Of a stretch of 10,135 bases of DNA, positions 1 to 9,979 are shown piece after piece. Source of the DNA: an uncultured archaeon (lineage in GTDB: Archaea > Iainarchaeota > Iainarchaeia > Iainarchaeales > CSSED10-239); the NCBI GenBank assembly GCA_964463155.1, contig CAYXAY010000023.1, positions 1,166 through 11,300 on the forward strand, read 5' to 3'. A model generated the notes under the pieces. That model searched no databases, had not been told where the DNA came from, and saw only the letters and a list, made by a program, of their open reading frames with translations. The position numbers were made by a program, and so were the translations under genes. Every line of letters begins with the position of its first letter. Within the stretch, counting starts at the first letter, position 1.

Positions 1-592
1 TTAAAAACATATCAATCAATATTAAAATATTTATCTTATATCTTTTTGTAAAAAGCTTCATGATTTCTTCAATAATCTCTGATTTTTCTTCTTCATTTTC
101 AACTTCTGACATAAGTTTGTTAATGTTTATTTTTTCGATTTCTTTTTTTGGAATGAATAGCCCTCCAAAAACAATCTTTATCTTTTCTTTAACTGTTAGT
201 CTTTTTAGAATCTTTTGAAGAGTGATATTGATATCTCTATCAACAAGATAAACCCTTGCACCAACTTCTTTAGCGGCCTCAATTGCAGAAAGCATCTCTT
301 GTCCAGGGGAAATATTGAATTTTTTTGCAATATTTTTCTGCAAGCCTCCAAGAATGTAATTTAGAAGAAAAACGGACTTATGTTTGGACTTGAAGATATC
401 AGAAAATTTTGCTTTTTTAAGCTTATCAGGATGTAATAATGCCTCTAGTCTTTTAGGATCAAGTTCAACACACACAGCAGCTGGTCTTTTATCTAAGATT
501 ATCTCTTTTACTTGGTCTCTATTTTTTGCAGAAACATGTGCGGTTCCAACAATTGTTATGTGTTTATTTCTAAAATACAGTTCTTTAATCAT
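1..592 (-). CDS. TraB/PrgY-family protein, N-terminal ~197 codons; the ORF continues beyond the left edge of the window
   Basis: Manual reverse-complement translation from the ATG at 592..590 gives MIKELYFRNKHITIVGTAHVSAKNRDQVKEIILDKRPAAVCVELDPKRLEALLHPDKLKKAKFSDIFKSKHKSVFLLNYILGGLQKNIAKKFNISPGQEMLSAIEAAKEVGARVYLVDRDINITLQKILKRL... with no stop down to position 1. The ORF track omits it because no stop lies in the window. 'VGTAHVS', then 'V.VELD..R', then 'L.DRDI.IT..R' is the N-terminal signature of the TraB/PrgY family as I know it. Confidence 0.75.
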   Translation of the reverse strand, partial: MIKELYFRNKHITIVGTAHVSAKNRDQVKEIILDKRPAAVCVELDPKRLEALLHPDKLKKAKFSDIFKSKHKSVFLLNYILGGLQKNIAKKFNISPGQEMLSAIEAAKEVGARVYLVDRDINITLQKILKRLTVKEKIKIVFGGLFIPKKEIEKININKLMSEVENEEEKSEIIEEIMKLFTKRYKINILILIDMFL

Positions 593-602
593 AACCAAAA
601 CA

Positions 603-650
603 TTTTAAATATATAATATATAATATTATTGTACAATAAACCATTTAAAC
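603..650. promoter_or_regulatory. Divergent AT-rich promoter region between the TraB-like gene and the surface-protein gene; contains tandem TATATAA heptamers
   Basis: This 69-nt intergenic spacer separates divergent starts at 592 (-) and 662 (+). TATATAA occurs in tandem at 610-616 and 617-623, and TTTAAA elements lie at 604-609 and 644-649. The heptamers sit ~18-31 nt upstream of the minus-strand ATG, which fits an archaeal TATA box driving a leaderless or short-leader mRNA. Which element serves the plus-strand gene is unclear. Confidence 0.35.
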
Positions 651-661
651 TGTGTTAATTT

Positions 662-3600
662 ATGCGTTTGTCAAAAATATTATTAACTCTAATAATTTTA
701 ATAGGAATAAGTTCCCCAATCTTTGCATACACAATAAACACCCTCGCATTTTCGGATAATTACATCAATTCAACAAAGAGAGTTTATTTTAATGGAACAG
801 CAACAGGCGATGGCCCATTAGAATTGAATATTTATTCTCAAAAGGATGTGACCGGAATAGATTTTAATGTAGATGTGGCAAGCGGTAATTTCTCAGGAAG
901 TTTTAATGTTTCACTTACAGCAACACAGTCAAGTCTAAATGGCACAGTACCAACAATTGTTTCAAATACAGCAGACACAATAACCATAAAAGACAAATTA
1001 TTCCCAAGCACCTGGTCAATGAAAATGGACTCTATCTCCCCAGTAAGTTCTCCAAATGTCACAGTCAGCGCATTATCGCAAAATCATCAGTATTTCTATT
1101 CCAAAGATATTAATGTATCTTATGGCGCAATAACAGATGCTGATAATTATATTGATAAATACATAACATATCTAGTAACAGTTTCCAATCTAAGCAATTA
1201 CAGAACAAACTATACAAAAAGATATATTGATTCAAACACAACATTTTCAAGAACAATAAATTCTATTTCTGAAAATATTTCTGATGGCAACTATTATGTT
1301 TTGGTTGATGCAAATGATGTGGCTGGGAATTTCTGTAATTTATCAGAAGTGACACAAAAAAAACAATTGGTTTATTTTGATAATTCTAAACCAGGCAACC
1401 TTAATGTAAATCTTGGAACACTAACAAATAACAGAATATATGTAAAAACAAGAACATTTAACTTGAATGTTACTTTGACGGACGCCTCTGGAATAAAGTC
1501 TGAATCAACATTAGTATTGACACTCCCAAATTCCACACCAATAATTAAAAATTATATAAGTGGTTTTGCAATAACGTCAGGAGAATTAGGTAGTTGGGAA
1601 GATGGAAATATTTTCAGAATATCAATTGATGCAAATGATAATCTCAATAACAATTACACATATGATTTTAATATAATTGTTGATGCAACAGCTCCAACAA
1701 AACCAAACAGAAATACTCTAGCAATAGAAGATGTTGACAAAAATGTGACAATCACTTGGCAAGCAGGAGCATCACTCGATTCAGCATCTGGTCTTGCAGA
1801 ATACAGGGTATACAAAAGCGCATCAAACTTTACAACAATAACTAACCAAGAATTAGTATGTACTGTAGGCACAACAACCTACACCTGTAAAGACTCTGAT
1901 GACAAGGAGTTAGATAATAGAATATATTATGGTCTTGTTGGTATAGATTATGCAGAAAACATAAGTGATGCAAACACCCAATCTGTCTGGACAGGTCCTG
2001 ATTGTGATTTAACAATTAATGATGATGATGATGATTATACAAGTTTAGCAAATGTTCTTTTAGAAATTGATTATTCAGATGATGTTAATGAGATGGCTAT
2101 AAGTTGTAACACAAGTTTTCCAGCCTATCTAGAAGCAGACAACGATTATAATTTTAATATAACAACAGGAAGAGGCTGTAACACTAAAAACGAGAAAAAA
2201 ACAGTTTATGTAAAAGTTAAAAGCAAAAATGATACCACAAGAACAAGCATCTGTTCATCAGACATTTATTTTGATAGCCTTGCTCCAACAACCCCGACAA
2301 ACCTTGTAGCCACAACAATGGCTGATGGTTCTGTAAGATTAACATGGACTGCAAGCGAAGACATTAACACAGATTCAGACATCACTTACAGAATATATTA
2401 TTCCTATACCAACAACGTAACAACATCTTCAACTTACAAAGCATCGTCAACGAACAATCACACTTACCGTTCTAACAGATCTACAACACTTTACTTTAGA
2501 GTAAGCGCGCTTGATGAAAGGAACAACGAGTCAGGATTAAGTTCAACCGTTTCAGGCATACTGCGAAAAATAGGTCCAAGCTTTACAATAACTTTTGTGC
2601 CTTTAGTAAATGATGTGAATGGAACACATTATGTTGGCGCCGGATCTCGAACTATCAACTTTGAAAGTGATGAAAGTCTTTTAGGCAACCCTGTAGTTAG
2701 CCTAAAACAATCAACAAACAATTTTGTAAACCTTACTTCAACATATGACAATTCCACAAAGAAAGGTCAAGCTATATTTGAGTTTATAAAATCCGGAGAC
2801 GGAATAATAAAGATTATTGGAACTAACACAAAAAACGAACAATCAACAACAGAATATCTCTTTACAATTGATGTTGTTGGTCCAACAGATTTTAATTATG
2901 GTTATGTGATTCAAAACCCAACAACCTATAATCTTTGGGTATCAAACCTTCCAACAGATATCTTTAAAGTTGAATACATATTAAACAACACAACAGAAAT
3001 TTGTAAAAAACAACAAGTCACAGACTACAATTGTATATATGATGCAAATACGACACCAGATGGCAACCACACAATGAATATAAGAGTTTATGACAAAGCA
3101 TTAAACTTTAAAGAAAAAACATTTTCATTTGTCCTAGACAACATTGACGAAGATAAGGTGGCTTGTGATGATTTGAGAAAAGAAATATCCAAGAGACTAA
3201 ATTTAATATTAGTCAATCTTGATTTATACCGGGCAGTAGACATTTATAAGACAATGGACAAAACAATAAATGATAAAATTGCACTCGTCAATTCCAAAAG
3301 GACCACAGCTGACGAAAGATATGCTCAAGGAAGCTATGCCTCTGCAAAGGATGCCTATCAACTTGCAAAAAACGAAATAATCTTAATAGAGGACATGTTG
3401 CCGCCAATAACAATTGTAAAAACAGGAACAACCAGATTTGTCTTTGATGGCAACACCAGTGTAAGAACAGATGTTTTTCTGGACAAAAATTTTTCAGACA
3501 AAACAAAAGAACTATATTCCCAAAACATAATCACAGCTGACAGAAATTTTGAGGTCTTAAAAATAGGAAACCAAAACTTCTTTTCAGTAACTTTGTCAAT

Positions 3601-4186
3601 CAACAGCAATAGCGATAAGGAAAAAACTATCACAATAATTGAAGAAATTCCAAAACCTTTTGCAAACAATATTTCAAAGATTACTTTTGACAAGAAAATA
3701 GAGGTTTTACTAAAAAACCCAGTAGTCAAATACACAACAACAATTCCAGCAAACTCTTCTGAAACAATAACATATAGATCATTAACACCAATAACACTTG
3801 TTGACATGGTAACAAAATACAATGCAGTCAGTTTTTCTGCACCAATAATAATTGATGGTAATATTTCCAACATCTATTTAAACATAAAAAAGCCAGTCAA
3901 CACAACATTGCTTATTTATATTTTCTCAATAATCATTTTGGTCATCATAATTATAGTAATAATAAGTGCAATTACAAGTTATCAAAAACAAAGCACGGCA
4001 GTAAAACCTGACTCCAAAAAGATAATGTACGATTATCTGGGGGTTATGGAAAACAACGCGGCAGTTCAAGAAAAGCAAAAAGCAGAAGAGCAAAAAACAA
4101 AAACAGAGGCCGAAAAGAAAAAAGACAATGGCGATAAGTTCAATGAGGACTATCAGTATATTCTTTCTGCAATTAAAAAAAGATAA
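662..4186 (+). CDS. Large (1174 aa) type I membrane cell-surface protein with multiple Ig-like/fibronectin-III-like modules; candidate glycosylated S-layer-like protein or adhesin
   Basis: This is the longest uninterrupted ORF in the window. It has a signal peptide, MRLSKILLTLIILIGISSPIFA|YT. Two clear FN3-like modules start at APTKPN (nt ~1691) and APTTPTNL (nt ~2282), with the patterns VTITW...YRVY and VRLTW...YRIYY...FRVSALD. Recurrent Ig-module endings of the 'D.aGN' type occur (VLVDANDVAGNF, ISIDANDNLNNN, VGIDYAENIS, VSALDERNNES, IRVYDKALNF), each followed by an FD/ID..P linker, which suggests ~8 beta-sandwich modules. A helical segment spans aa ~830-912. An unassigned beta-rich domain spans aa ~913-1081. 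A single C-terminal TM helix, TLLIYIFSIIILVIIIIVIISAITS, lies at nt 3905-3979. A 68-aa K/E-rich tail follows. By hand I count ~37 N-x-S/T sequons in the ectodomain. Confidence 0.85.
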   Translation: MRLSKILLTLIILIGISSPIFAYTINTLAFSDNYINSTKRVYFNGTATGDGPLELNIYSQKDVTGIDFNVDVASGNFSGSFNVSLTATQSSLNGTVPTIVSNTADTITIKDKLFPSTWSMKMDSISPVSSPNVTVSALSQNHQYFYSKDINVSYGAITDADNYIDKYITYLVTVSNLSNYRTNYTKRYIDSNTTFSRTINSISENISDGNYYVLVDANDVAGNFCNLSEVTQKKQLVYFDNSKPGNLNVNLGTLTNNRIYVKTRTFNLNVTLTDASGIKSESTLVLTLPNSTPIIKNYISGFAITSGELGSWEDGNIFRISIDANDNLNNNYTYDFNIIVDATAPTKPNRNTLAIEDVDKNVTITWQAGASLDSASGLAEYRVYKSASNFTTITNQELVCTVGTTTYTCKDSDDKELDNRIYYGLVGIDYAENISDANTQSVWTGPDCDLTINDDDDDYTSLANVLLEIDYSDDVNEMAISCNTSFPAYLEADNDYNFNITTGRGCNTKNEKKTVYVKVKSKNDTTRTSICSSDIYFDSLAPTTPTNLVATTMADGSVRLTWTASEDINTDSDITYRIYYSYTNNVTTSSTYKASSTNNHTYRSNRSTTLYFRVSALDERNNESGLSSTVSGILRKIGPSFTITFVPLVNDVNGTHYVGAGSRTINFESDESLLGNPVVSLKQSTNNFVNLTSTYDNSTKKGQAIFEFIKSGDGIIKIIGTNTKNEQSTTEYLFTIDVVGPTDFNYGYVIQNPTTYNLWVSNLPTDIFKVEYILNNTTEICKKQQVTDYNCIYDANTTPDGNHTMNIRVYDKALNFKEKTFSFVLDNIDEDKVACDDLRKEISKRLNLILVNLDLYRAVDIYKTMDKTINDKIALVNSKRTTADERYAQGSYASAKDAYQLAKNEIILIEDMLPPITIVKTGTTRFVFDGNTSVRTDVFLDKNFSDKTKELYSQNIITADRNFEVLKIGNQNFFSVTLSINSNSDKEKTITIIEEIPKPFANNISKITFDKKIEVLLKNPVVKYTTTIPANSSETITYRSLTPITLVDMVTKYNAVSFSAPIIIDGNISNIYLNIKKPVNTTLLIYIFSIIILVIIIIVIISAITSYQKQSTAVKPDSKKIMYDYLGVMENNAAVQEKQKAEEQKTKTEAEKKKDNGDKFNEDYQYILSAIKKR

Positions 4187-4188
4187 AC

Positions 4189-5373
4189 ATGATAAAAGGA
4201 TTAGAAACTAGAATTGTTGTTGTTGGCGGAGGGCCAACAGGTTTATATTGCGCATATCTGATTAAAAGATTTAATCCAAATATTTTAGTTACATTAATAG
4301 AAAACGACAAAGAAATAGGCATTTCAGTATCCTGCGCAGGACATGTCTCAATTGTAGGCCTAAAAAAACTAAAGTTAACTCCTTTTCTTGATATTGATAG
4401 ATTAGTGGTTAATAGAATAAGAGGAGCAAGAATACATGGCCCAAACAAGGCAGAGCTTGAGTTTAGAACAAAAAGATTCCAAACAGTAGTTCTTAACAGA
4501 CACATATTTGACAAAGAAATTGAAAAGCTTGCAAGAAATGTGGGGGTAGAGATTCTTTTAGGTCACCAAGTAGTAAGTGTTCAAAATGATTCTGTTGCAG
4601 TAAACATAATTGATGAAAACAGACTAGTCTATATTGATTACACATACTTGATAGGAGCAGATGGTCCAAACTCAATAGTAAGAGCCAGCTTCTTTGAAAA
4701 ACTAGACAAAGAGGATTTCATAACAACCTATCAAGTGACAGCAAACGGCGATTTCACAAAGGATATGGTTGATTTGTATTTTGGCGATTTTTCAAAAAAC
4801 TTCTTTGCCTGGGTCGTTCCAGAATCATACACAATTGCAAGAATTGGAATTGGTGTGCCACTTGGCAAAAACCCTAAAGAGGCCTTTGATCAATTTTTGG
4901 GGAAATCAAACCTAAAACTCACAAACACAAAATTTTCAGCATCTGGAATAATTCCTGTTGCAAAGCCGTTGAAAAGTTATATAGATAAAAACAAGCTTTT
5001 GATAGGTGACGCCGCATGTTTTGTTAAGGCAACAAGCGGAGGCGGAATTATCTTTGGTCTATCTAGTGCAGAATGTGCAGCAAGAGCAATAACTGACAGA
5101 TTGAAAAAATTCAAAAAAGTTGATAACTACAATAAACATTTAAGAACTTTGTTGATGGAACTAAACATACATTACAAACTGCACAAATATATGAATAAAA
5201 AAACAAGTTCTGAATTCGACACATTACTTTTGAAACTAAAAGAAGCAGGCATAGAAAATTTCTTGAATAACAATGGCAACATAGATTATCCAAGCGAGTT
5301 TATACTAAAATTGATTTTATATCCTAAATTTTTATTATTCTATAAGGAAATAATCAAAATTATTAAATCTTAA
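4189..5373 (+). CDS. Geranylgeranyl reductase family FAD-dependent oxidoreductase (probable digeranylgeranylglycerophospholipid reductase)
   Basis: 394-aa ORF starting 2 nt after the upstream stop. It has an N-terminal Rossmann dinucleotide motif, RIVVVGGGPTGLYCAY. It also carries LIGADGPNSIVR (the GADG.nS.vR motif), FFAWVVPES (the counterpart of the GGR Y.W.FP motif) and LLIGDAACFVKATSGGGI (the GDAA....p..GGGI motif). This order and spacing is typical of archaeal GGR-family enzymes. Confidence 0.85.
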   Translation: MIKGLETRIVVVGGGPTGLYCAYLIKRFNPNILVTLIENDKEIGISVSCAGHVSIVGLKKLKLTPFLDIDRLVVNRIRGARIHGPNKAELEFRTKRFQTVVLNRHIFDKEIEKLARNVGVEILLGHQVVSVQNDSVAVNIIDENRLVYIDYTYLIGADGPNSIVRASFFEKLDKEDFITTYQVTANGDFTKDMVDLYFGDFSKNFFAWVVPESYTIARIGIGVPLGKNPKEAFDQFLGKSNLKLTNTKFSASGIIPVAKPLKSYIDKNKLLIGDAACFVKATSGGGIIFGLSSAECAARAITDRLKKFKKVDNYNKHLRTLLMELNIHYKLHKYMNKKTSSEFDTLLLKLKEAGIENFLNNNGNIDYPSEFILKLILYPKFLLFYKEIIKIIKS

Positions 5374-5376
5374 ACA

Positions 5377-5380
5377 GGAG
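5377..5380 (+). promoter_or_regulatory. Shine-Dalgarno-like GGAG, 9 nt upstream of the 5390 ATG
   Basis: The sequence is caGGAGaagataaatATG within a 16-nt intergenic gap. Confidence 0.5.
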
Positions 5381-5389
5381 AAGATAAAT

Positions 5390-7132
5390 ATGAATAAATT
5401 TACAATATTTTTTGTGTTTCTTTTGTGTTTAGGCACTTTAAATTTTATTAGCGCCCAAGAGAACATACAAGCCATGACTGGCCAAGCAAGCGTTACTGCC
5501 GCATCAACTAGTAACGCTAATCCACAGATAGTCTCCGAAAAAAAAGAATGTCAAGAAGAGGTAAATGCTATTGGAAGGCGAATAGTTGAAATAAGAAAAG
5601 CATATCTTGATGAATTGTTAGGTATGTATCCAACTTATTCTCTTGTAGCAAGAGAATATTTTACTGCATTAAAATCATACAAAGAATGTTTATCACAAAG
5701 AACCGCACAAAAGATAACAAGCTCAGGAATTACAGCAAATATTGTTGTTGCGGATGTGGCAATGACAAATAGTTGGGCAAGTAATAATTTGCCAGTTACA
5801 GAAAATGCAGGTAATGGAATAGTGCCAACAATAGACACTCCTGCAGAATATATTGCTGCCGAAAAAATGGCAAACAATATGGAAAGAGAGATTGAAGAAG
5901 TGCCCGAAACCAATCTAGAAATGTGTAAGGAACAAAGAATATTGGTAAAAACAAAGGTAGCTATTGTAAGACAGGAGATATCAAAGATAAAGGCACTTAA
6001 AGAAAAATATAAAGTAGATTTTGAAAAGGTAGAGAAATTAAGAGCACAAAGACAAGAAATAATAAAAAGATGTTACCCTCAATTGTCTGTAGTCATAAAA
6101 CCAGAATGTGCTGTTTCTGAAGAAATGCTTGCAAAACAAAAAGAACTTCAAAAAAAGATTGTTGCATTACAATCAGAATTTATAACCCCACAAGCCACTA
6201 GCAAAAAAGAGTTCATGGCAGAGTATAAAAAGGTAAAGGAAGAACACAGGCTAGTTACTGAAAAAATAAACACTATAAAAAATGAATGCCAACAAAGGTC
6301 ACAAATAATCTCCAATATAGATTATTGTTCAGAAAACGCAGAGCAATTAAAAATCATGGAACAATTAAAACAGAAACTAGTAAATGCAATAGATGAAACA
6401 GAGATATATGAGCTTAAGACAAAAATGGCATATTATCAGCAAAAAATCAATAATACAAAATGCATATCGCGGCCAACAACAGAGAAACCATTAACAGAAA
6501 TTGAAATGTATAAAAAACAAATACAGGAACTAAAAGCACAGATACATAAAAAGGATTTAGAAATAAGAAAATTAAAAGAATCAATCGAAGCAATAAGATT
6601 GGAACTTAAAAACGCAGGACAAGAAAGGAAGGCAGAGGTTTTAGCACAAAATGCAGATAAGATCCTTGAGCACACAAGAGAAATCCTTGAAAAAAGAATC
6701 GCGGAATTAAAGGAAAAGATCAGTTCAATTGAAGCATCAACAGAAATTACAACAGAAGAGAAAACCAAAATCATAGATAAAATAAACCAAAGAATTGCTG
6801 AACTTGAAATGATAAAATCAAAGCTTACAGAAGCATCAACCCCCCAGGAACTAAGACAAATAATAAACGCAGCAAGAAAAAGTGAAGAAAAGGCAATTAT
6901 TGAAAACAAGATTGCTACCTTAAAGAAAAGCATTTCAAAGCTAGCAAATATCATAGAAACGCACTTTGTAAATTCTGAAAATTATGAACGCTATAAAATT
7001 GAAATTGACAATATTTCAACAAAGACATCAGAATTAACTTCACAATCAAGCAAAAAAAAAATTGATACAATAGTTTATGAATACAAAGAGTTAAAGCAAA
7101 AAATAGTAAGCGAGGCGGAAAGCAATGAATAA
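5390..7132 (+). CDS. Secreted K/E-rich coiled-coil protein (580 aa) with eight regularly spaced cysteines in the N-terminal two-thirds; no family assignable
   Basis: Signal peptide MNKFTIFFVFLLCLGTLNFISA|QE, followed by no further hydrophobic segment. Long heptad-like K/E/I/L-rich stretches are present, for example KKQIQELKAQIHKKDLEIRKLKESIEAIRLELK. Cys residues are at aa 54, 100, 179, 228, 240, 300, 313 and 358, with none after 358. An SD-like GGAG lies upstream. Confidence 0.8.
   Translation: MNKFTIFFVFLLCLGTLNFISAQENIQAMTGQASVTAASTSNANPQIVSEKKECQEEVNAIGRRIVEIRKAYLDELLGMYPTYSLVAREYFTALKSYKECLSQRTAQKITSSGITANIVVADVAMTNSWASNNLPVTENAGNGIVPTIDTPAEYIAAEKMANNMEREIEEVPETNLEMCKEQRILVKTKVAIVRQEISKIKALKEKYKVDFEKVEKLRAQRQEIIKRCYPQLSVVIKPECAVSEEMLAKQKELQKKIVALQSEFITPQATSKKEFMAEYKKVKEEHRLVTEKINTIKNECQQRSQIISNIDYCSENAEQLKIMEQLKQKLVNAIDETEIYELKTKMAYYQQKINNTKCISRPTTEKPLTEIEMYKKQIQELKAQIHKKDLEIRKLKESIEAIRLELKNAGQERKAEVLAQNADKILEHTREILEKRIAELKEKISSIEASTEITTEEKTKIIDKINQRIAELEMIKSKLTEASTPQELRQIINAARKSEEKAIIENKIATLKKSISKLANIIETHFVNSENYERYKIEIDNISTKTSELTSQSSKKKIDTIVYEYKELKQKIVSEAESNE
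7112..7115 (+). promoter_or_regulatory. Shine-Dalgarno-like GAGG, 9 nt upstream of the 7125 ATG, inside the 3' end of the preceding gene
   Basis: The sequence is cGAGGcggaaagcaATGaaTAA. The 9-nt spacing matches that of the GGAG in front of 5390. Confidence 0.4.
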
Positions 7133-7331
7133 GAACACTCTTATAATAGGGATTATAATCATAATAGTGCTAGCTATTGTCGGTTTTTTGATATTTAACA
7201 ACAATAAAGTTGTTGACAATCAGACACAAATAGCAAACAGCCCAGAACTACAAACAGAATTAAATTCCCTAAATGAAACAGACAATCCGCTTACAACAGA
7301 GTATGAACCAGAGATAATAGATGTCCAGTAG
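7125..7331 (+). CDS. Small (68 aa) single-pass membrane protein with an acidic C-terminal segment, translationally coupled to the coiled-coil gene
   Basis: Its start overlaps the upstream stop by 8 nt (ATGAATAA). An SD-like GAGG lies 9 nt upstream. The N-terminal TM helix is TLIIGIIIIIVLAIVGFLIF, followed by a polar/acidic tail, ...ETDNPLTTEYEPEIIDVQ. An oligo-T tract follows directly. The ORF is short, so coding status is less certain. Confidence 0.55.
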   Translation: MNKNTLIIGIIIIIVLAIVGFLIFNNNKVVDNQTQIANSPELQTELNSLNETDNPLTTEYEPEIIDVQ

Positions 7332-7342
7332 GCATATTGGCA

Positions 7343-7368
7343 TTTATTTTCTTTTCTTTTTTCTTTTT
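7343..7368 (+). terminator. Oligo-T rich tract, candidate archaeal intrinsic terminator for the 662-7331 block
   Basis: The tract tttattttcttttcttttttcttttt begins 12 nt after the TAG at 7329-7331. It is the first long T-tract cluster after four closely packed genes. Archaeal RNA polymerase is known to terminate at oligo-T runs. Confidence 0.45.
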
Positions 7369-7395
7369 AAATTCCATTTATAAAAATTACTGTTC

Positions 7396-7403: not shown

Positions 7404-7423
7404 TATATTAATCGACCGTTTGT

Positions 7424-7496
7424 AGCCCGATGGTGTAGTGGCCAAGCATGCAAGGCTTTGAACCTTGCGACAGGAGTTCGAATCTCTTTCGGGCTA
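7424..7496 (+). tRNA. tRNA-Gln (anticodon UUG), archaeal type, CCA not encoded
   Basis: Hand-folded cloverleaf. The acceptor stem AGCCCGA/TCGGGCT has 7 of 7 pairs, with discriminator A at 7496. The D arm is GTGT-agtggccaa-GCAT. The anticodon stem is CAAGG/CCTTG with loop CTTTGAA, and anticodon TTG lies at 7458-7460. The T arm is AGGAG-TTCGAAT-CTCTT. The 5' sequence AGCCCG.UGGUGUAGUGGCC and the A1:U72 pair match archaeal tRNA-Gln as I recall it from methanogens. Confidence 0.9.
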
Positions 7497-7539
7497 TTTC
7501 TTTAAATACATTTCTTTAAAGAAAATATATAGCGACAAA

Positions 7540-7614
7540 GGGAGTGTAGCTTAGCCTGGTTGGAGCACCCGACTGATAATCGGGCGGTCGCAGGTTCGAA
7601 TCCTGCCTCTCCCA
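7540..7614 (+). tRNA. tRNA-Ile (anticodon GAU), CCA not encoded
   Basis: Hand-folded cloverleaf. The acceptor stem GGGAGTG/CTCTCCC has 6 of 7 pairs, with a U6-U67 mismatch. The D arm is GCTT-agcctggttg-GAGC. The anticodon stem is CCCGA/TCGGG with loop CTGATAA, and anticodon GAT lies at 7575-7577. The variable loop is CGGTC. The T arm is GCAGG-TTCGAAT-CCTGC. The discriminator A is at 7614. Confidence 0.9.
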
Positions 7615-7659: not shown

Positions 7660-8541
7660 ATGACTTCAGAACTTGAGATGTTATTAAACAAAGGATTCTC
7701 CATTGTTGGATGCCAGAAAAAAGAAACAGCAATACTAATGATACATGGTTTTGCATCTTCTCCAAAAGAGTTTGAACCATTATCTGAATATCTAAAGATT
7801 GAATATGATATTTATGCTCCAATACTTCCTGGGCATAAAACAAGCATTGCTGATTTCTGTAAAAAGAAACACACAGACTGGATAACCGCTGCAGAAAACA
7901 TCTATAATCATTTGCAAAAAAGCTATTCAAAAATAATACTTCTTGGCGTTTCTATGGGTGGAACAATCTGTCTTAACATCGCTTCAAGAAAAAACCCTTA
8001 CAAGATAATAACTGTGTCTTCGCCAATAGATTTCTTAGATTTCAACTTTGCGAAAGGAATATTAAGCGAATTACGTAACACAAAAATCACTGTTGCAACA
8101 ATTGTAAAAGGAATTAACGCATTGTCTGTTAAGGAAAAACAAGACAAGGAAAAGAAAAAGGAGGCAAGCATCGACAAGATAAAGATCGTTCTAAACAACA
8201 TATACAAAAAACTAAAAAAAGACATAATAAAAGTTGACAACGACATGTCTAGTTACATAGACACCTACGAAGACATATCCTACAATGCTGTTAAGGAAAT
8301 ATTTCTTCTAGTAAATAACACAAAACCAAAGCTTTCAAAAATCAAATGCGATATCTTGGTTATCCACAGTAGAGGCGACAAATTAATCCCAGTAAGCAAC
8401 TCCAGTGCAATAATTGCAGGAGTTACAAGCGATGATAGAGAACAGTTTGTTGTCACAAACTCCGCCCACAATGTCTTGATTGATGCAGAACACGAAAGGG
8501 TGTTTAAAAGAATTAAAGAGTTTATTCAAAGAACAAATTAA
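7660..8541 (+). CDS. Alpha/beta-hydrolase carboxylesterase (Est30/YvaK-like esterase / lysophospholipase family)
   Basis: 293-aa ORF. The oxyanion-hole region is AILMIHGFASSPKEF. The nucleophile elbow is LLGVSMGG, with Ser98 at nt 7951-7953. The acid residue is in VIHSRGDKLIP (Asp240). The catalytic His is in TNSAHNVLID (His270). A K/E-rich helical cap insert lies between them (aa ~155-215). Overall order and length resemble the Geobacillus Est30-type carboxylesterases as I recall them. Confidence 0.85.
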   Translation: MTSELEMLLNKGFSIVGCQKKETAILMIHGFASSPKEFEPLSEYLKIEYDIYAPILPGHKTSIADFCKKKHTDWITAAENIYNHLQKSYSKIILLGVSMGGTICLNIASRKNPYKIITVSSPIDFLDFNFAKGILSELRNTKITVATIVKGINALSVKEKQDKEKKKEASIDKIKIVLNNIYKKLKKDIIKVDNDMSSYIDTYEDISYNAVKEIFLLVNNTKPKLSKIKCDILVIHSRGDKLIPVSNSSAIIAGVTSDDREQFVVTNSAHNVLIDAEHERVFKRIKEFIQRTN

Positions 8542-8542
8542 T

Positions 8543-9028
8543 TTATTTTGTCTTTTCATTTACAAATGATAGGTTTGGAGTTATTATCTGTTTTTCATTG
8601 TCAAACCTTGCAGTTCCGATTACTTGATCTCCAAACACACAAGCAACAAAGCCACTAGAAAGAAGGCTTTTCTTTTTTATCTCAGAAACAGAAATGTTTT
8701 TTCCTGAAAAATAGTTTTTTGCTTGCTCCCTAGTAATCTCCACAGAATTTTGCTTTATCTTTTCTGCAGGAAAAAAGGAAAATCCAAGAGATGATGGCAC
8801 ATAGTTCTTGTAATTGGAGAATATCTCCAGTCCAAAGCTAACAACATAATTGGTGTTAAGTAATTTTTCAATAGTTCTTTTGTTTTCTTTTGAAAAAGAC
8901 AATATTGAAACAGACTGCCCAGAAATAGTAAAAAGATAATTATCAAAAAAATTCTTGTCAATGCCAAACCTTGATTCCAAGTAATTGACAAGCTTAGTCC
9001 TTGTCTTCTCATCTAATTTCTTTGTCAT
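8543..9028 (-). CDS. Stand-alone homologue of the C-terminal (PUA-like, RNA-binding) region of RsmF-type m5C methyltransferases; in frame with, and directly abutting, the upstream catalytic ORF
   Basis: 161-aa ORF whose ATG (9028..9026) immediately follows the TAA (9031..9029) of the methyltransferase ORF, in the same frame. EITREQAKNYFSGKNI and GFVACVFGDQVIGTARFDNEKQIITPNL resemble, from memory, the E. coli RsmF C-terminus (ELTPQEAEEWYRGRDV ... [25 protein letters not shown]). 316 + 161 aa is close to the ~480 aa of full-length RsmF. A weak AGGA lies 7 nt upstream of the ATG. Confidence 0.7.
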   Translation of the reverse strand: MTKKLDEKTRTKLVNYLESRFGIDKNFFDNYLFTISGQSVSILSFSKENKRTIEKLLNTNYVVSFGLEIFSNYKNYVPSSLGFSFFPAEKIKQNSVEITREQAKNYFSGKNISVSEIKKKSLLSSGFVACVFGDQVIGTARFDNEKQIITPNLSFVNEKTK

Positions 9029-9979
9029 TTATTGTTCCTTTTTTAGTTTGCATATGAAGAACCCTTCAATGTCTGCTTTGTGTGGCCATATCCTTAGTGC
9101 TTTTTTTAATTCCGGAGAGAAGTTTTTGTTTTTGTATTTGGTTAGGCCACTATCAGTTTTTAATCCAGAAATTGTAATTTCTTGGGAAAGAGCGGATTTT
9201 TCTTTTCTTAGAAGATAATCAACTACTTCTTCATTTTCTTCAGGCGACAATGTGCATGTTGAGTAAACCAAGACTCCTCCCGGCTTTAGTAAAGAAAATG
9301 CTTTTTCAAGTAATTTTTTTTGAAGCTCTGATTTTGAAGATACTTCGCGATTGCTCCAGTCCTTCAAGGAGTCAGGTTTCTTTCTTACTATTCCTTCACA
9401 AGAGCAAGGAGCGTCTAGAAGAATCTTATCAAATCTAATACCTAAGTCAAACCTAATGCCATCTTGGCAAGTGATTATGGTGTTTGTAACCCCTAGTCTT
9501 TTAATAGTAAACTTTAAAGTCTTAATTCTTTTCTTATCAACGTCGTTTGCCACAATCAGCCCTTTGTTGTTCATTATCTGTGCAAGTATTCCTGTCTTGT
9601 TACCAGGCGCAGCAGTCAAATCTAAAACAATGTCTTTTTCTTTTGGCTCAAGAACAAAAGCAGGAAGCATAGATGAAATTTCTTGTATCTGAAACAAACC
9701 AATATTCTGTTCAATGATGTTTCCAAGACCAGAAACAACCGATTTTACAAAATAGGCGTTTTCAAGATATTTTACTTTATCAATAACAATACCTTGTTCT
9801 TTTAGAAAAGAAATATCTATAGTCTTAAGAGTATTTACAATTAAAGACTTTGTTTGCCTTTTCTTACAGCACTCTAGAAACTCAGTTGCTTCCTTTTCAC
9901 CCAAGAGAGCAGTATATTTCTCAACAAACTCTTTTGGCAAATACACATTTCCCACACATAAATTAGATAATAAATACAT
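9029..9979 (-). CDS. rsmF: NOL1/NOP2/Sun-family RNA (cytosine-C5)-methyltransferase, RsmF-like N-terminal plus catalytic domains
   Basis: 316-aa ORF with the family motifs in order. These are VYLPKEFVEKY...SLIVNTLK (N-domain), LFQIQEISSMLP, the SAM motif I VLDLTAAPGNKT, motif IV ILLDAPCSCEGIVRKKPD with a catalytic Cys, motif VI LVYSTCTLSPEENEEVV with the second Cys, and the terminal IEGFFICKLKK. In an archaeon the true substrate could be tRNA (Trm4-like) rather than 16S rRNA, so the symbol denotes architecture only. Confidence 0.88.
   Translation of the reverse strand: MYLLSNLCVGNVYLPKEFVEKYTALLGEKEATEFLECCKKRQTKSLIVNTLKTIDISFLKEQGIVIDKVKYLENAYFVKSVVSGLGNIIEQNIGLFQIQEISSMLPAFVLEPKEKDIVLDLTAAPGNKTGILAQIMNNKGLIVANDVDKKRIKTLKFTIKRLGVTNTIITCQDGIRFDLGIRFDKILLDAPCSCEGIVRKKPDSLKDWSNREVSSKSELQKKLLEKAFSLLKPGGVLVYSTCTLSPEENEEVVDYLLRKEKSALSQEITISGLKTDSGLTKYKNKNFSPELKKALRIWPHKADIEGFFICKLKKEQ

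Follow-up and report, generated by a model that had tools for sequence, protein, structure and literature searches.

The 10,135-nt stretch of archaeal DNA analyzed here (the window) carries four densely packed plus-strand ORFs, designated BIG, GGR, CC, and TM, which appear to be a BIG-GGR pair followed by an optional CC-TM pair rather than an obligate four-part machine. The reading we lean toward, at somewhat better than even chances, is that of an old Iainarchaeota envelope-related cluster in which two translationally coupled pairs lie head to tail. The cluster proteins are so far uncharacterized. The archaeal origin suggested in the original prediction is borne out, the source being a DPANN lineage, Iainarchaeota/Diapherotrites, with related loci from Ca. 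Iainarchaeum, Diapherotrites, and Ca. ainarchaeum. The features of the locus are as follows.

1–592, minus strand: 5′ part of a TraB/PrgY-family gene (TIGR00261 TraB, E 4e-37), extending beyond the window
598–615, plus strand: BRE/TATA-like promoter motif AAACATTTTAAATATATA, conserved in relatives; putative cluster promoter
662–4186, plus strand: BIG, 1174-aa type I membrane surface protein (ORF)
4127–4183, plus strand: BIG C-terminal cytoplasmic helix, aa 1156–1174, ending FNEDYQYILSAIKKR; most conserved BIG segment
4189–5373, plus strand: GGR, 394-aa geranylgeranyl-reductase-family flavoprotein (TIGR02032)
5377–5380, plus strand: GGAG Shine-Dalgarno-like motif, 9 nt before the CC ATG
5390–7132, plus strand: CC, 580-aa secreted all-alpha protein (ORF)
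7112–7115, plus strand: GAGG Shine-Dalgarno-like motif, 9 nt before the TM ATG, within the CC 3′ end
7125–7331, plus strand: TM, 68-aa bitopic membrane micro-protein (ORF, alignments)
7332–7383, plus strand: T-dense non-coding stretch, 23 T in 30 nt, archaeal terminator-like; putative end of the transcription unit
7423–7497, plus strand: tRNA-Gln(TTG) (ARAGORN, Rfam)
7540–7614, plus strand: tRNA-Ile(GAT) (ARAGORN, Rfam)

Across a comparison set of ~19 related genomes, BIG-GGR adjacency was found in 16 of 16 genomes plus L026, i.e., in every genome with sequence at that position. The spacer between the two genes measures 1–6 nt in 14 of the 16 and 14–24 nt in two; with the 6 nt observed in L026, 15 of 17 fall at 1–6 nt. 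This adjacency persists despite an altered upstream flank (L019) or altered downstream flanks (L016, L019, L026), and the 1–6-nt spacer is maintained while BIG identity between genomes drops to ~35–50%. A fixed coupling of this kind between a GGR and a large surface-protein gene was not found in a limited literature search. The CC-TM pair follows GGR in 10 genomes, both genes always occurring together; the four-gene order was scored in nine genomes plus L025, whose sequence begins inside GGR. The spacer between CC and TM ranges from −8 to +15 nt in eight main-clade genomes and is 3 nt in L026 and 31 nt in L025, and the GGR-CC junction is tight (−13 to +33 nt) in six lineages. L025 and L026 are distant relatives that keep GGR-CC-TM though their downstream flanks differ, and CC and TM at both loci were detected by independent HMMs, the main-clade TM HMM picking up the small gene after CC with E 1.3e-5 and 1.7e-4, respectively. 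The four-gene order is thus present in distant relatives with different flanks and in both deep GGR clades (L026 versus the main clade; clade bootstraps 100), which indicates that the order is old.

Of 18 informative genomes, 7 lack CC and TM after GGR, corresponding to at least three independent losses. In L005 the two genes were co-deleted, leaving a scar ORF in which the signal peptide of CC runs into the C terminus of TM, and in L023 CC lies away from GGR (no GGR within 6 kb upstream of CC). Because the CC-TM pair is dispensable, the cluster is better viewed as two coupled pairs, and the dedicated four-part module of the original prediction does not hold as an obligate unit; the synteny it asked about is real in the nine genomes and L025 and breaks down in the seven genomes lacking the pair and in L023. 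A competing account is that the genes are mere neighbors: in a compact DPANN genome that rearranges slowly, a housekeeping lipid reductase, a surface protein specific to the lineage, and an accessory secreted-protein pair unrelated to them would have come to be adjacent by chance, the two pairs being unrelated in job and any co-transcription carrying no functional meaning. In the main clade ~23 kb is collinear, from ribosomal proteins and IF-2 through to the thermosome, so that much of the synteny reflects simple inheritance; more than 20 kb of functionally unrelated flanking genes is equally collinear. Spacers of 0–1 nt also separate unrelated genes in the window (8541/8543, convergent, 1 nt; 9028/9029, 0 nt). 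Close spacing by itself is nothing special here, co-directional tight packing being the norm in this genome, and the evidence for a non-random gene arrangement comes from comparative genomics instead. Repeated loss of CC-TM beside an unchanged BIG-GGR, the separate location of CC in L023, and the promoter-/terminator-like GGR-CC spacers of one clade, described below, likewise suit mere adjacency. However, breakpoints lie only after TM (L025, L026) or after GGR (L016, L019), never inside BIG-GGR or CC-TM; GGR-CC-TM is intact in two distant genomes with different downstream genes; and the short BIG-GGR spacer has outlasted the divergence of BIG itself. On this evidence we regard mere adjacency as unlikely, though a serious contender to the two-pair cluster.

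The ORF coordinates, junctions, and Shine-Dalgarno-like motifs given in the original prediction were all read in the sequence. BIG ends with TAA at 4184–4186 and GGR starts with ATG at 4189 (2-nt gap); GGR ends with TAA at 5371–5373 and CC starts with ATG at 5390 (16-nt gap); CC and TM overlap by 8 nt (ATGAATAA at 7125–7132). Most of eight main-clade orthologues have GGAGG/GAGGTG-type motifs ahead of CC, none being evident in L004 and L017, and motifs akin to the GAGG of TM are found in most orthologues. As had been claimed, the divergent spacer between TraB and BIG (593–661) is AT/TATA-rich; its motif AAACATTTTAAATATATA is common to L002, L007, L008, and L015, with a variant form in L006. On the plus strand of the whole window, TTTAWATA occurs at 604 and 7501 only (ahead of BIG and in the interval separating the two tRNA genes, respectively). 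Runs of T5–6 exist within the coding span (3474, 3490, 3832, 4788, 4894, 5329, 5408, and 7184), and the statement that oligo-T clusters first appear after 7331 holds in substance, the first non-coding T-dense cluster of the locus being that at 7332–7383. The four genes here would most likely be transcribed from the TATA-like promoter at ~598–615 and terminated at 7332–7383. The proposed single transcription unit is favored by the restriction of TATA-like motifs to 604 and 7501 and by the mostly tight junctions; against it stands one clade (L008/L010/L017/L021) in which the GGR-CC spacer extends to 71–112 nt and contains T-runs and then TATA-like boxes, apparently terminator- and promoter-like signals. 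TraB, lying ahead of BIG and oriented away from it, was found in eight distinct related genomes by tblastn and likewise in L004, L005, L016, and L019 from gene tables or ORF lists; this divergent neighbor stays with BIG-GGR in most relatives having upstream sequence. The tRNA-Gln/tRNA-Ile pair is the downstream cluster boundary in the main clade and in relatives follows either the cluster or the empty site.

BIG, the first gene of the invariant pair, exhibits a signal peptide (aa 1–22; N-terminal signal-like helix aa 3–25 by hydropathy), and hydropathy also places one transmembrane helix at aa ~1081–1106, followed by a cytoplasmic tail. The AF2 model (pLDDT 79) displays a layout of ~8 Ig/FN3-like beta-sandwich domains over aa 25–825, a three-helix bundle at aa 830–912, and a membrane-proximal beta domain at aa 916–1065. 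Two of ~10 domains are recognizable by sequence, namely a Big_13 match at aa 752–826 (27 bits, at the gathering threshold) and an FN3 match to 1k85 (E 1.2e-6). Foldseek matches are generic Ig/FN3 chains, and neither sequence searches nor Foldseek returned family matches beyond the Big_13/FN3 level or any known S-layer family. Homologues comprise 12 full-length proteins at 40–51% identity and 14 GTDB loci. BIG contains 38 N-x-S/T sequons as compared to 23.1 ± 4.2 in shuffles, every one in the ectodomain or at the ectodomain/transmembrane helix junction, and is probably N-glycosylated. The chain of Ig/FN3-like domains would thus be displayed at the cell surface. The protein ends in a highly conserved segment predicted to be a cytoplasmic amphipathic helix, with mean pairwise identity of 0.73 as compared to 0.34–0.58 in all other BIG segments and invariant columns F1160, Y1164, I1167, L1168, A1170, I1171, and K1172; aa 1160–1173 are helical in the AF2 prediction, and the coding region of this helix sits directly upstream of the GGR start codon. 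The domain content (Big_13 domain, FN3 match 1k85, Ig/FN3 Foldseek chains) is reminiscent of bacterial Big_13/FN3 multi-domain adhesins; unlike these, BIG is archaeal and is anchored by a C-terminal transmembrane helix. The attachment role and the episymbiotic lifestyle suggested in the original prediction are conjectural here. The Haloferax volcanii S-layer glycoprotein csg is an archaeal Ig-like surface glycoprotein with a C-terminal membrane anchor, and BIG shares with csg-type glycoproteins the signal peptide, Ig-like string, many sequons, single C-terminal transmembrane helix, and short cytoplasmic tail. It differs in having neither a sequence nor a specific fold match to known S-layer families, in its three-helix bundle and extra membrane-proximal beta domain, and in its terminal cytoplasmic helix being the most conserved part. 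In a preprint, the S-layer protein predicted for Iainarchaeota is A0A2G9N319, which at 1039 aa differs in length from BIG; that role is therefore probably not filled by BIG.

Among the four cluster products, only GGR exhibits a solid family match, and the geranylgeranyl reductase identity proposed from the sequence was upheld (TIGR02032 score of 179.2 bits, the cutoff being 158.8). Among solved structures the top match is 3oz2, a digeranylgeranylglycerophospholipid reductase from Thermoplasma (E 8.5e-20), to which GGR aligns over aa 4–306 with the GGGPxG, V(S/R)C Cys, W-V-x-P, and (L/V)GDAA motifs all conserved. Hydropathy detected no transmembrane helix or signal. GGR is a predicted cytoplasmic FAD enzyme, and members of its family saturate isoprenoid chains in membrane lipids and possibly also in dolichol, the sugar carrier. 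With its FAD/Cys motifs and a score above the curated family cutoff, GGR resembles archaeal geranylgeranyl reductases (TIGR02032/arCOG00570) such as the enzymes from Thermoplasma acidophilum (PDB 3oz2) and Sulfolobus acidocaldarius (PDB 3atq/4opc), but it falls below every substrate-specific equivalog cutoff, including the lipid-specific models NF041080 (87.5 against 580) and NF041160 (80.4 against 780). The equivalog models therefore do not assign a substrate, which could be a membrane lipid, dolichol, or another polyprenyl. In one alternative, GGR would be, or double as, a polyprenol/dolichol-phosphate reductase maturing the lipid carrier used in N-glycosylation; it would be co-translated with BIG, the major N-glycosylated substrate of the cell, and CC-TM would form a separate accessory unit. 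A Haloferax volcanii GGR homologue is described as saturating dolichol phosphate, a step for which it is required, as well as diether lipids (Naparstek et al. 2012, as summarized in PMC10821996); the sequon excess of BIG, the invariant BIG-GGR linkage, and the missed lipid-specific cutoffs are in line with such coupling. Yet the missed cutoffs are distant ones, which a divergent DPANN sequence would be expected to miss; 3oz2, the closest relative by structure, acts on membrane lipids; and no oligosaccharyltransferase or glycosyltransferase gene is present in any locus examined. We regard this alternative as improbable.

CC, the first gene of the optional pair, encodes a signal-like helix at aa 3–23 and no transmembrane anchor by hydropathy. 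With BIG and TM, it makes up the three of four products for which a signal peptide and/or transmembrane helix had been noted, as hydropathy confirmed. No Pfam, NCBIfam, PDB, PADLOC, or PHROG family matches CC, and its own family has ~25 representatives among 1.84 billion proteins. The AF2 model, of low confidence (pLDDT 63.5, pTM 0.29), contains 17 helices interrupted by loops, and heptad-like periodicity (~2.5 sd above shuffles) is confined to three short segments; together these lend weak support to the long extracellular coiled-coil rod first envisaged. Conservation across the family peaks at eight cysteines (C54, C100, C179, C228, C240, C300, C313, and C358): in a 17-sequence alignment, six of the cysteines, A495, and K569 are invariant, and C54 and C228 are ≥90% conserved. 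Three of the four cysteine pairs (179/228, 240/300, and 313/358) flank predicted helix-turn-helix units, and the eight would most likely form four disulfides bracing helical hairpins in the exported protein. The cysteine-stapled character originally proposed stands as to the conserved cysteines; C54 and C100, however, lie on one unbroken predicted helix, a poor fit to an intrachain staple.

TM consists of an MxKKxLII N terminus, a single transmembrane helix at aa ~6–25, and an acidic tail of ~42 aa that carries the motifs L-x-x-(D/E)-L-x-x-L-(D/N) and C-terminal EII(D/E)(V/I/L); tail net charges range from −8 to −23. Its 18 homologues are all 65–86 aa long. Searches for a known family, structure, defense, or phage match to TM returned none, and profile, PDB, and Foldseek searches agree with the earlier view that BIG, CC, and TM belong to no nameable family beyond generic Ig/FN3. 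TM appears to be a real, lineage-restricted micro-protein.

In the Sulfolobales SlaA/SlaB system and in Staphylothermus tetrabrachion, a surface protein is combined with a helical stalk, and SlaB and tetrabrachion are themselves membrane-anchored and contain long canonical coiled coils. The present locus is similar in that a large beta-rich BIG is encoded near a secreted, mostly helical CC needing membrane attachment. A SlaA/SlaB-like two-component surface lattice could be drawn from this, in which BIG forms the lattice or canopy, with TM-held CC below or alongside as a helical stalk or spacer layer; BIG also has the generic hallmarks by which archaeal S-layer proteins are nominated (signal peptide, multiple Ig-like domains, membrane anchor, many sequons). 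Unlike SlaB and tetrabrachion, to which no homology was detected, CC lacks a transmembrane helix, exhibits weak heptad character in three short segments together with its eight conserved cysteines, and would rely on a second protein of 68 aa. No known S-layer family is matched by BIG, its Foldseek matches are generic, the protein proposed as the Iainarchaeota S-layer protein is of different length, and CC-TM is absent from seven genomes retaining BIG. We consider a two-component lattice very unlikely. Under the preferred two-pair reading, CC-TM would instead be an accessory unit kept or lost whole by lineages, in which the TM tail most likely faces outward and TM would act as a partner in the membrane, or a tether, for CC, which has no anchor of its own. 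Such tethering, suggested originally, is not explained by simple charge pairing, since acidity is common to CC proteins (pI ~5 for the majority of orthologues) and to the TM tail.

The four plus-strand open reading frames of the proposed envelope module (662-7331) and their three junctions were recovered by ORF calling and direct reading as the original prediction had placed them. The window has a G+C content of ~32% and is organized as follows.

Upstream of BIG, minus strand: TraB/PrgY-family gene (TraB), divergent and running off the window, identified by translation and family match
662-4186, plus strand: BIG, ORF of 1174 aa, Ig/FN3-like surface protein
4189-5373, plus strand: GGR, ORF of 394 aa, geranylgeranyl-reductase-family protein
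5390-7132, plus strand: CC, ORF of 580 aa, cysteine-bearing helical protein with predicted export
7125-7331, plus strand: TM, ORF of 68 aa, membrane micro-protein
Downstream of the cluster: tRNA-Gln and tRNA-Ile
Further downstream: alpha/beta hydrolase, a 161-aa ORF and a NOL1/NOP2/RsmF-type methyltransferase

As read from the sequence, BIG and GGR are separated by 2 nt. GGR and CC are separated by 16 nt, with a GGAG ending 9 nt 5' of the ATG, and CC and TM overlap by 8 nt (ATGAATAA), with a GAGG ending 9 nt 5' of the ATG. Spacing alone is not special in this window because close packing is common there, unrelated neighbors at 8541/8543 and 9028/9029 being spaced 1 and 0 nt apart. Hydropathy agrees with the predicted presence of a signal peptide and/or transmembrane helix in three of the four products: BIG combines a signal-like N terminus with one C-terminal transmembrane helix, CC has a signal-like N terminus only, and TM has a single transmembrane helix, while no hydrophobic segment is present in GGR.

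Approximately 19 distinct related genomes were assembled, and the window proteins were mapped onto them by tblastn and HMMs. Flanking genes in these relatives are archaeal (eIF2-gamma, aIF-2, Spt4, Rpb7, and thermosome), and the lineage is the DPANN phylum Iainarchaeota/Diapherotrites. Gene order among relatives, on which the original four-gene proposal had been made to depend, is kept in full for the first two genes and in part for the others. BIG is followed by GGR in all 17 genomes with sequence at that position, with a spacer of 1-6 nt in 14 of 16 genomes, 14-24 nt in the other two of these, and 6 nt in the further genome L026, and this adjacency is kept despite a changed upstream flank (L019) or downstream flank (L016, L019, and L026). 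CC and TM follow GGR in 10 of 18 genomes (the window, L010, L004, L006, L008, L014, L017, L021, L025, and L026), but the pair is missing from seven and lies elsewhere in one. In L023, a CC homolog follows T2SSE/T2SSF-like, VTT, and DUF116 genes, and the 6 kb upstream of it contain no GGR. CC and TM always co-occur, spaced by -8 to +15 nt in eight main-clade genomes, 3 nt in L026, and 31 nt in L025. Much of this conservation of gene order is background, since the main clade is collinear for more than 20 kb on both sides of the cluster. Breakpoints and deletions are located after GGR or after TM, never within BIG-GGR or CC-TM.

The GGR-CC-TM order is still kept in the distant L025 and L026, in which CC is 21-23% identical to the window copy and the downstream genes differ (SRP54 and prepilin peptidase in L025; an unrelated minus-strand gene in L026). 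L026 also retains BIG, its GGR and CC overlap by 13 nt, and in the GGR tree it falls with L018 in the deep outgroup clade (bootstrap 100), so that the four-gene order predates the split of the sampled lineage. Some shallow nodes of this tree had low or erratic bootstraps, and only nodes at 99-100 were relied on. Absence of CC-TM after GGR (L002, L007, L012, L015, L005, L016, and L019) requires at least three independent losses. One of these left a trace: in L005, the 100%-supported sister of the CC-TM-bearing L004, a short ORF at 7709-7870 joins the CC signal peptide (MEAKNQKKIIFTILFLFIISSQIYA) to the TM C terminus (EELDSLDELLDANTDSEIIDIS). The CC HMM (E 0.003) and the TM HMM (E 4e-4) each recognize this ORF weakly, and its TM-derived part is an EELDSLDELL...SEIIDIS motif; by sequence, it is a clean deletion scar of CC-TM. 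A mobile cassette inserted beside the tRNA genes was considered and rejected, as both deep clades have the pair and its absence reflects deletion, evidenced by the L005 scar. The cluster is best described as two pairs, each apparently translationally coupled, that became neighbors early in the history of the phylum; BIG-GGR is universal, and CC-TM is accessory and lost as a unit.

The original prediction had also treated the four genes as a single transcription unit. Signals in the window fit that reading, beginning with an element in the TraB/BIG divergent spacer.

598-615, TraB/BIG divergent spacer: BRE/TATA-like motif AAACATTTTAAATATATAATATAT, near-identical in L002, L007, L008, and L015

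This motif may be an archaeal promoter element, either shared or bidirectional. No consensus TATA-like motif was found on the plus strand of the window between it and position 7501, and the first non-coding T-dense block spans 7332-7383; the predicted first long oligo-T cluster after 7331 is thus in place, though T5-6 runs do occur within the coding span of the cluster. Junctions in the window are short or overlapping, and internal promoter or terminator signals were not found, as expected of a single operon. The promoter motif, the TATA absence, and the T-block would together be consistent with one transcript covering all four window genes. Elsewhere the single unit is less secure. Six lineages have GGR and CC closely set (-13 to +33 nt), but the two genes are 71-112 nt apart in the clade L008/L010/L017/L021 (clade support 99%), where T-runs come right after GGR and are followed by TTTTTATAA/TTTTTAAAA-like boxes ~45-50 nt upstream of the CC start codon. 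Judged by sequence only, this spacer appears to carry terminator- and promoter-like signals. A sigma-70 promoter and intrinsic-terminator scan of the window is not applicable to archaea and was uninformative.

GGR is, by profile and alignment, a bona fide geranylgeranyl reductase family member, a new one in a known family. It scores 179.2 bits against TIGR02032 (cutoff 158.8) over profile positions 3-297 of 297 and matches FAD_binding_3 at E 1.3e-10, and its closest solved structure is the Thermoplasma digeranylgeranylglycerophospholipid reductase 3oz2 (E 8.5e-20). The GxGxxG motif of the FAD-binding Rossmann fold (VVVGGGPTG, aa 10-18) aligns with VVGGGPGG of 3oz2, and further aligned segments are VSCAG versus VRCGE, FAWVVP versus YIWVFP, and LIGDAA versus LVGDAA. 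These contain the conserved Cys near the flavin, W-x-x-P, and GDAA, which we take to be the catalytic and substrate motifs of solved archaeal GGRs. A score over the equivalog cutoffs for digeranylgeranylglycerophospholipid reductase would imply the same substrate; GGR falls below both (NF041080, 87.5 versus 580 bits; NF041160, 80.4 versus 780) and is therefore assigned at the family level only.

BIG is a lineage-specific Ig/FN3 surface protein whose folds are, as originally predicted, only generically Ig/FN3. Sequence matches are borderline (Big_13, 27.0 bits at a cutoff of 27; FN3 of chitinase A1, 1k85, E 1.2e-6), and no PDB sequence match beyond FN3 was found. An AF2 model from a 13-sequence alignment is usable (pLDDT 79) and predicts the following.

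aa 25-825: about eight beta-sandwich domains
aa 830-912: three-helix bundle
aa 916-1065: further beta domain
aa 1081-1106: transmembrane helix, followed by a disordered tail
aa 1160-1173: terminal helix

Foldseek returned 490 matches at E <= 1e-3 to Ig/FN3 chains, the top ones being eukaryotic Ig/FN3 chains and alpha-2-macroglobulins with TM-scores of ~0.1, a generic resemblance only. N-x-S/T sequons are enriched (38 versus 23.1 +/- 4.2). Signal peptide, cell anchor, multiple domains, and glycosylation sites are S-layer-type traits, generic and insufficient alone. Pfam and NCBIfam yielded no match of BIG to a known S-layer family (e.g., MSTP/DUF1608-like or the halobacterial csg type), and a preprint nominates a protein of different length, the 1039-aa A0A2G9N319, as the Iainarchaeota S-layer protein; BIG is therefore unlikely to be the phylum's canonical S-layer protein. 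Conservation within BIG is highest in its cytoplasmic terminal helix, ...FNEDYQYILSAIKKR (aa 1156-1174, window 4127-4183; consensus ...FxEDYxYILSAIKKR), with a mean pairwise identity of 0.73 versus 0.34-0.58 elsewhere in the protein. The constraint may act either on the peptide, as a partner-binding motif, or on the RNA, as a re-initiation signal for GGR. The codons of this helix directly precede the GGR start codon.

BIG would be a chain of Ig/FN3 domains on the cell surface, probably N-glycosylated, and GGR a cytoplasmic isoprenoid reductase. The fixed coupling of GGR to BIG may do no more than secure expression, or it may tie glycoprotein output to saturation of a membrane lipid or dolichol carrier. 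As summarized in PMC10821996, a Haloferax GGR homolog is needed for saturated dolichol phosphate and diether lipids (Naparstek 2012).

CC and TM belong to uncharacterized lineage-restricted families, with no relatives detected in solved structures or curated families. For CC, no family match was found in Pfam, NCBIfam, PDB, PADLOC, or PHROGs. An exhaustive search of 1.84 billion representatives yielded ~25 full-length relatives of 571-812 aa, and two metagenome scans for further contexts found none. Across a 17-sequence alignment at 19-41% identity, C100, C179, C240, C300, C313, and C358 are invariant together with A495 and K569, and the conservation of C54 and C228 is 90% or higher, bringing the conserved cysteines to eight. 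The AF2 model is all-helical and of low confidence (pLDDT 63.5), its loops dividing it into 17 helices of 10-64 aa; in three of the four pairs of consecutive cysteines, the two residues fall on either side of a predicted helix-turn-helix unit, and those of the remaining pair, C54 and C100, share a single long predicted helix. A crude a/d-position heptad scan gave 50 windows versus 18 +/- 13 in shuffles, a modest periodicity confined to segments 6-107, 151-217, and 368-412. The "cysteine-stapled secreted coiled coil" originally proposed is consequently borne out in its signal-like N terminus and its cysteines and more weakly in its coiled-coil character. The export signal, the even count of conserved cysteines, and the modeled helix pairs support a predicted disulfide-braced, secreted all-alpha protein, whereas the modest heptads leave a long coiled-coil rod not established. 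The prediction that CC has no nameable family was upheld by the profile and Foldseek checks it had proposed: a profile search of PDB sequences returned chance coiled-coil matches only (E >= 0.02), and Foldseek of the model, whose confidence is too low to rely on, returned nothing from the PDB at E <= 0.001. A mobile, defense, or viral origin was rejected, with PADLOC and PHROGs matches sub-threshold and driven by coiled-coil or transmembrane composition, and the family inherited vertically at a fixed site.

Seven main-clade CC orthologs (L010, L004, L006, L008, L014, L017, and L021), and not the window CC, bear a ~30-aa N-terminal Cys module, (V/M)C(T/A)xDxxxCPDGxxVxRxPxxNCEFxxCP. Four examples, each with the module at the N terminus, are given here.

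L010, 10776-12725: CC ortholog with Cys module
L004, 14761-16584: CC ortholog with Cys module
L006, 14750-16750: CC ortholog with Cys module
L008, 14746-16554: CC ortholog with Cys module

The module also occurs in 2-10 tandem copies in more than 80 other proteins of the representative library (e.g., P0063 and P0058). Pfam scans of the CC orthologs and of the module-bearing proteins gave no family, and no Pfam model matches the module itself.

TM is a real gene, with 18 homologs of 65-86 aa. Their alignments show conservation of an N-terminal MxKKxLII, the transmembrane helix, and an acidic tail that contains L-x-x-(D/E)-L-x-x-L-(D/N) and a C-terminal EII(D/E)(V/I/L). Like CC, it proved to lack a nameable family, as predicted. 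An archaeal type IV pilin-like identity was considered and not borne out: the window TM has no Pilin_N match, one ortholog alone shows a sub-threshold one (E 0.011, 17 bits versus 25.2), and a prepilin cleavage motif is not evident in the alignment. The L014 homolog (11092-11322) lacks an in-frame start codon of the ATG, GTG, or TTG type; shifting by one frame across an A7 run gives a GTG preceded by a Shine-Dalgarno-like motif. Misassembly, a frameshift, or a non-canonical start could explain this anomaly.

Being always co-encoded and co-deleted with CC, TM would be its obvious candidate membrane partner, as had been suggested. Opposite charges on CC and the TM tail were tested as the basis of such an interaction and rejected; both are acidic, so binding would need the conserved hydrophobic/acidic motifs or cations. 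The four-gene arrangement bears no more than a loose resemblance to archaeal surface-protein loci such as SlaA/SlaB. An attachment role for the cluster is no more than possible. The boldest reading, which we consider improbable, is an undescribed Iainarchaeota-specific envelope-building unit in which the end helix of BIG recruits GGR to the membrane and TM tethers CC outside. BIG insertion or glycosylation would then be coupled to local lipid or dolichol saturation via co-translated GGR, and the TM-tethered, four-disulfide CC would form an extra surface layer or host-contact element in CC/TM-bearing lineages only. For a joint function of the BIG-GGR and CC-TM pairs, the argument would be one of synteny.

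Uncharacterized secreted proteins are common in DPANN genomes; these archaea are mostly uncultured, and their envelope building and cell contact are poorly known. Three lineage-restricted families (BIG, CC, and TM) now have boundaries, conserved residues, and an evolutionary behavior, and a large sequon-rich surface protein is coupled at near-zero spacing to a geranylgeranyl-reductase-family enzyme phylum-wide. If this coupling is functional, linking dolichol or lipid saturation with a glycosylated surface protein, it provides a testable hypothesis of archaeal envelope biogenesis; if not, the cluster still serves as an Iainarchaeota synteny marker and a source of candidate surface antigens. 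The repeated clean losses of CC and TM are natural "knock-outs" for comparison.

Further observations concern the flanks. Between GGR and tRNA-Gln, L015 carries a different insert in place of CC-TM (10924-12382) with a basic 84-aa ORF and a 418-aa ORF, the latter with no Pfam match, and this site may be especially prone to gene turnover. In L007, the aIF-2/IF-2 gene, one ~571-aa ORF in other relatives, is present as two ORFs (1920-3790; 205 and 383 aa), which could reflect a frameshift, assembly error, or insertion. The 161-aa ORF of the window (8543-9028, minus strand) abuts the methyltransferase ORF (9029-9979, minus strand) with a spacer of 0 nt, weakly matches the RsmF C-terminal domain (NF008898 positions 383-455, E 0.0085), and resembles a C-terminal domain that has been split off; relatives also have it as an ORF of its own. 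Relative to the window and the remaining relatives, tRNA-Gln(TTG) is inverted to the minus strand in L004 (16840-16914), L005 (7881-7955), and L014 (11335-11409), and the orientation of tRNA-Ile(GAT) is unchanged in that clade.
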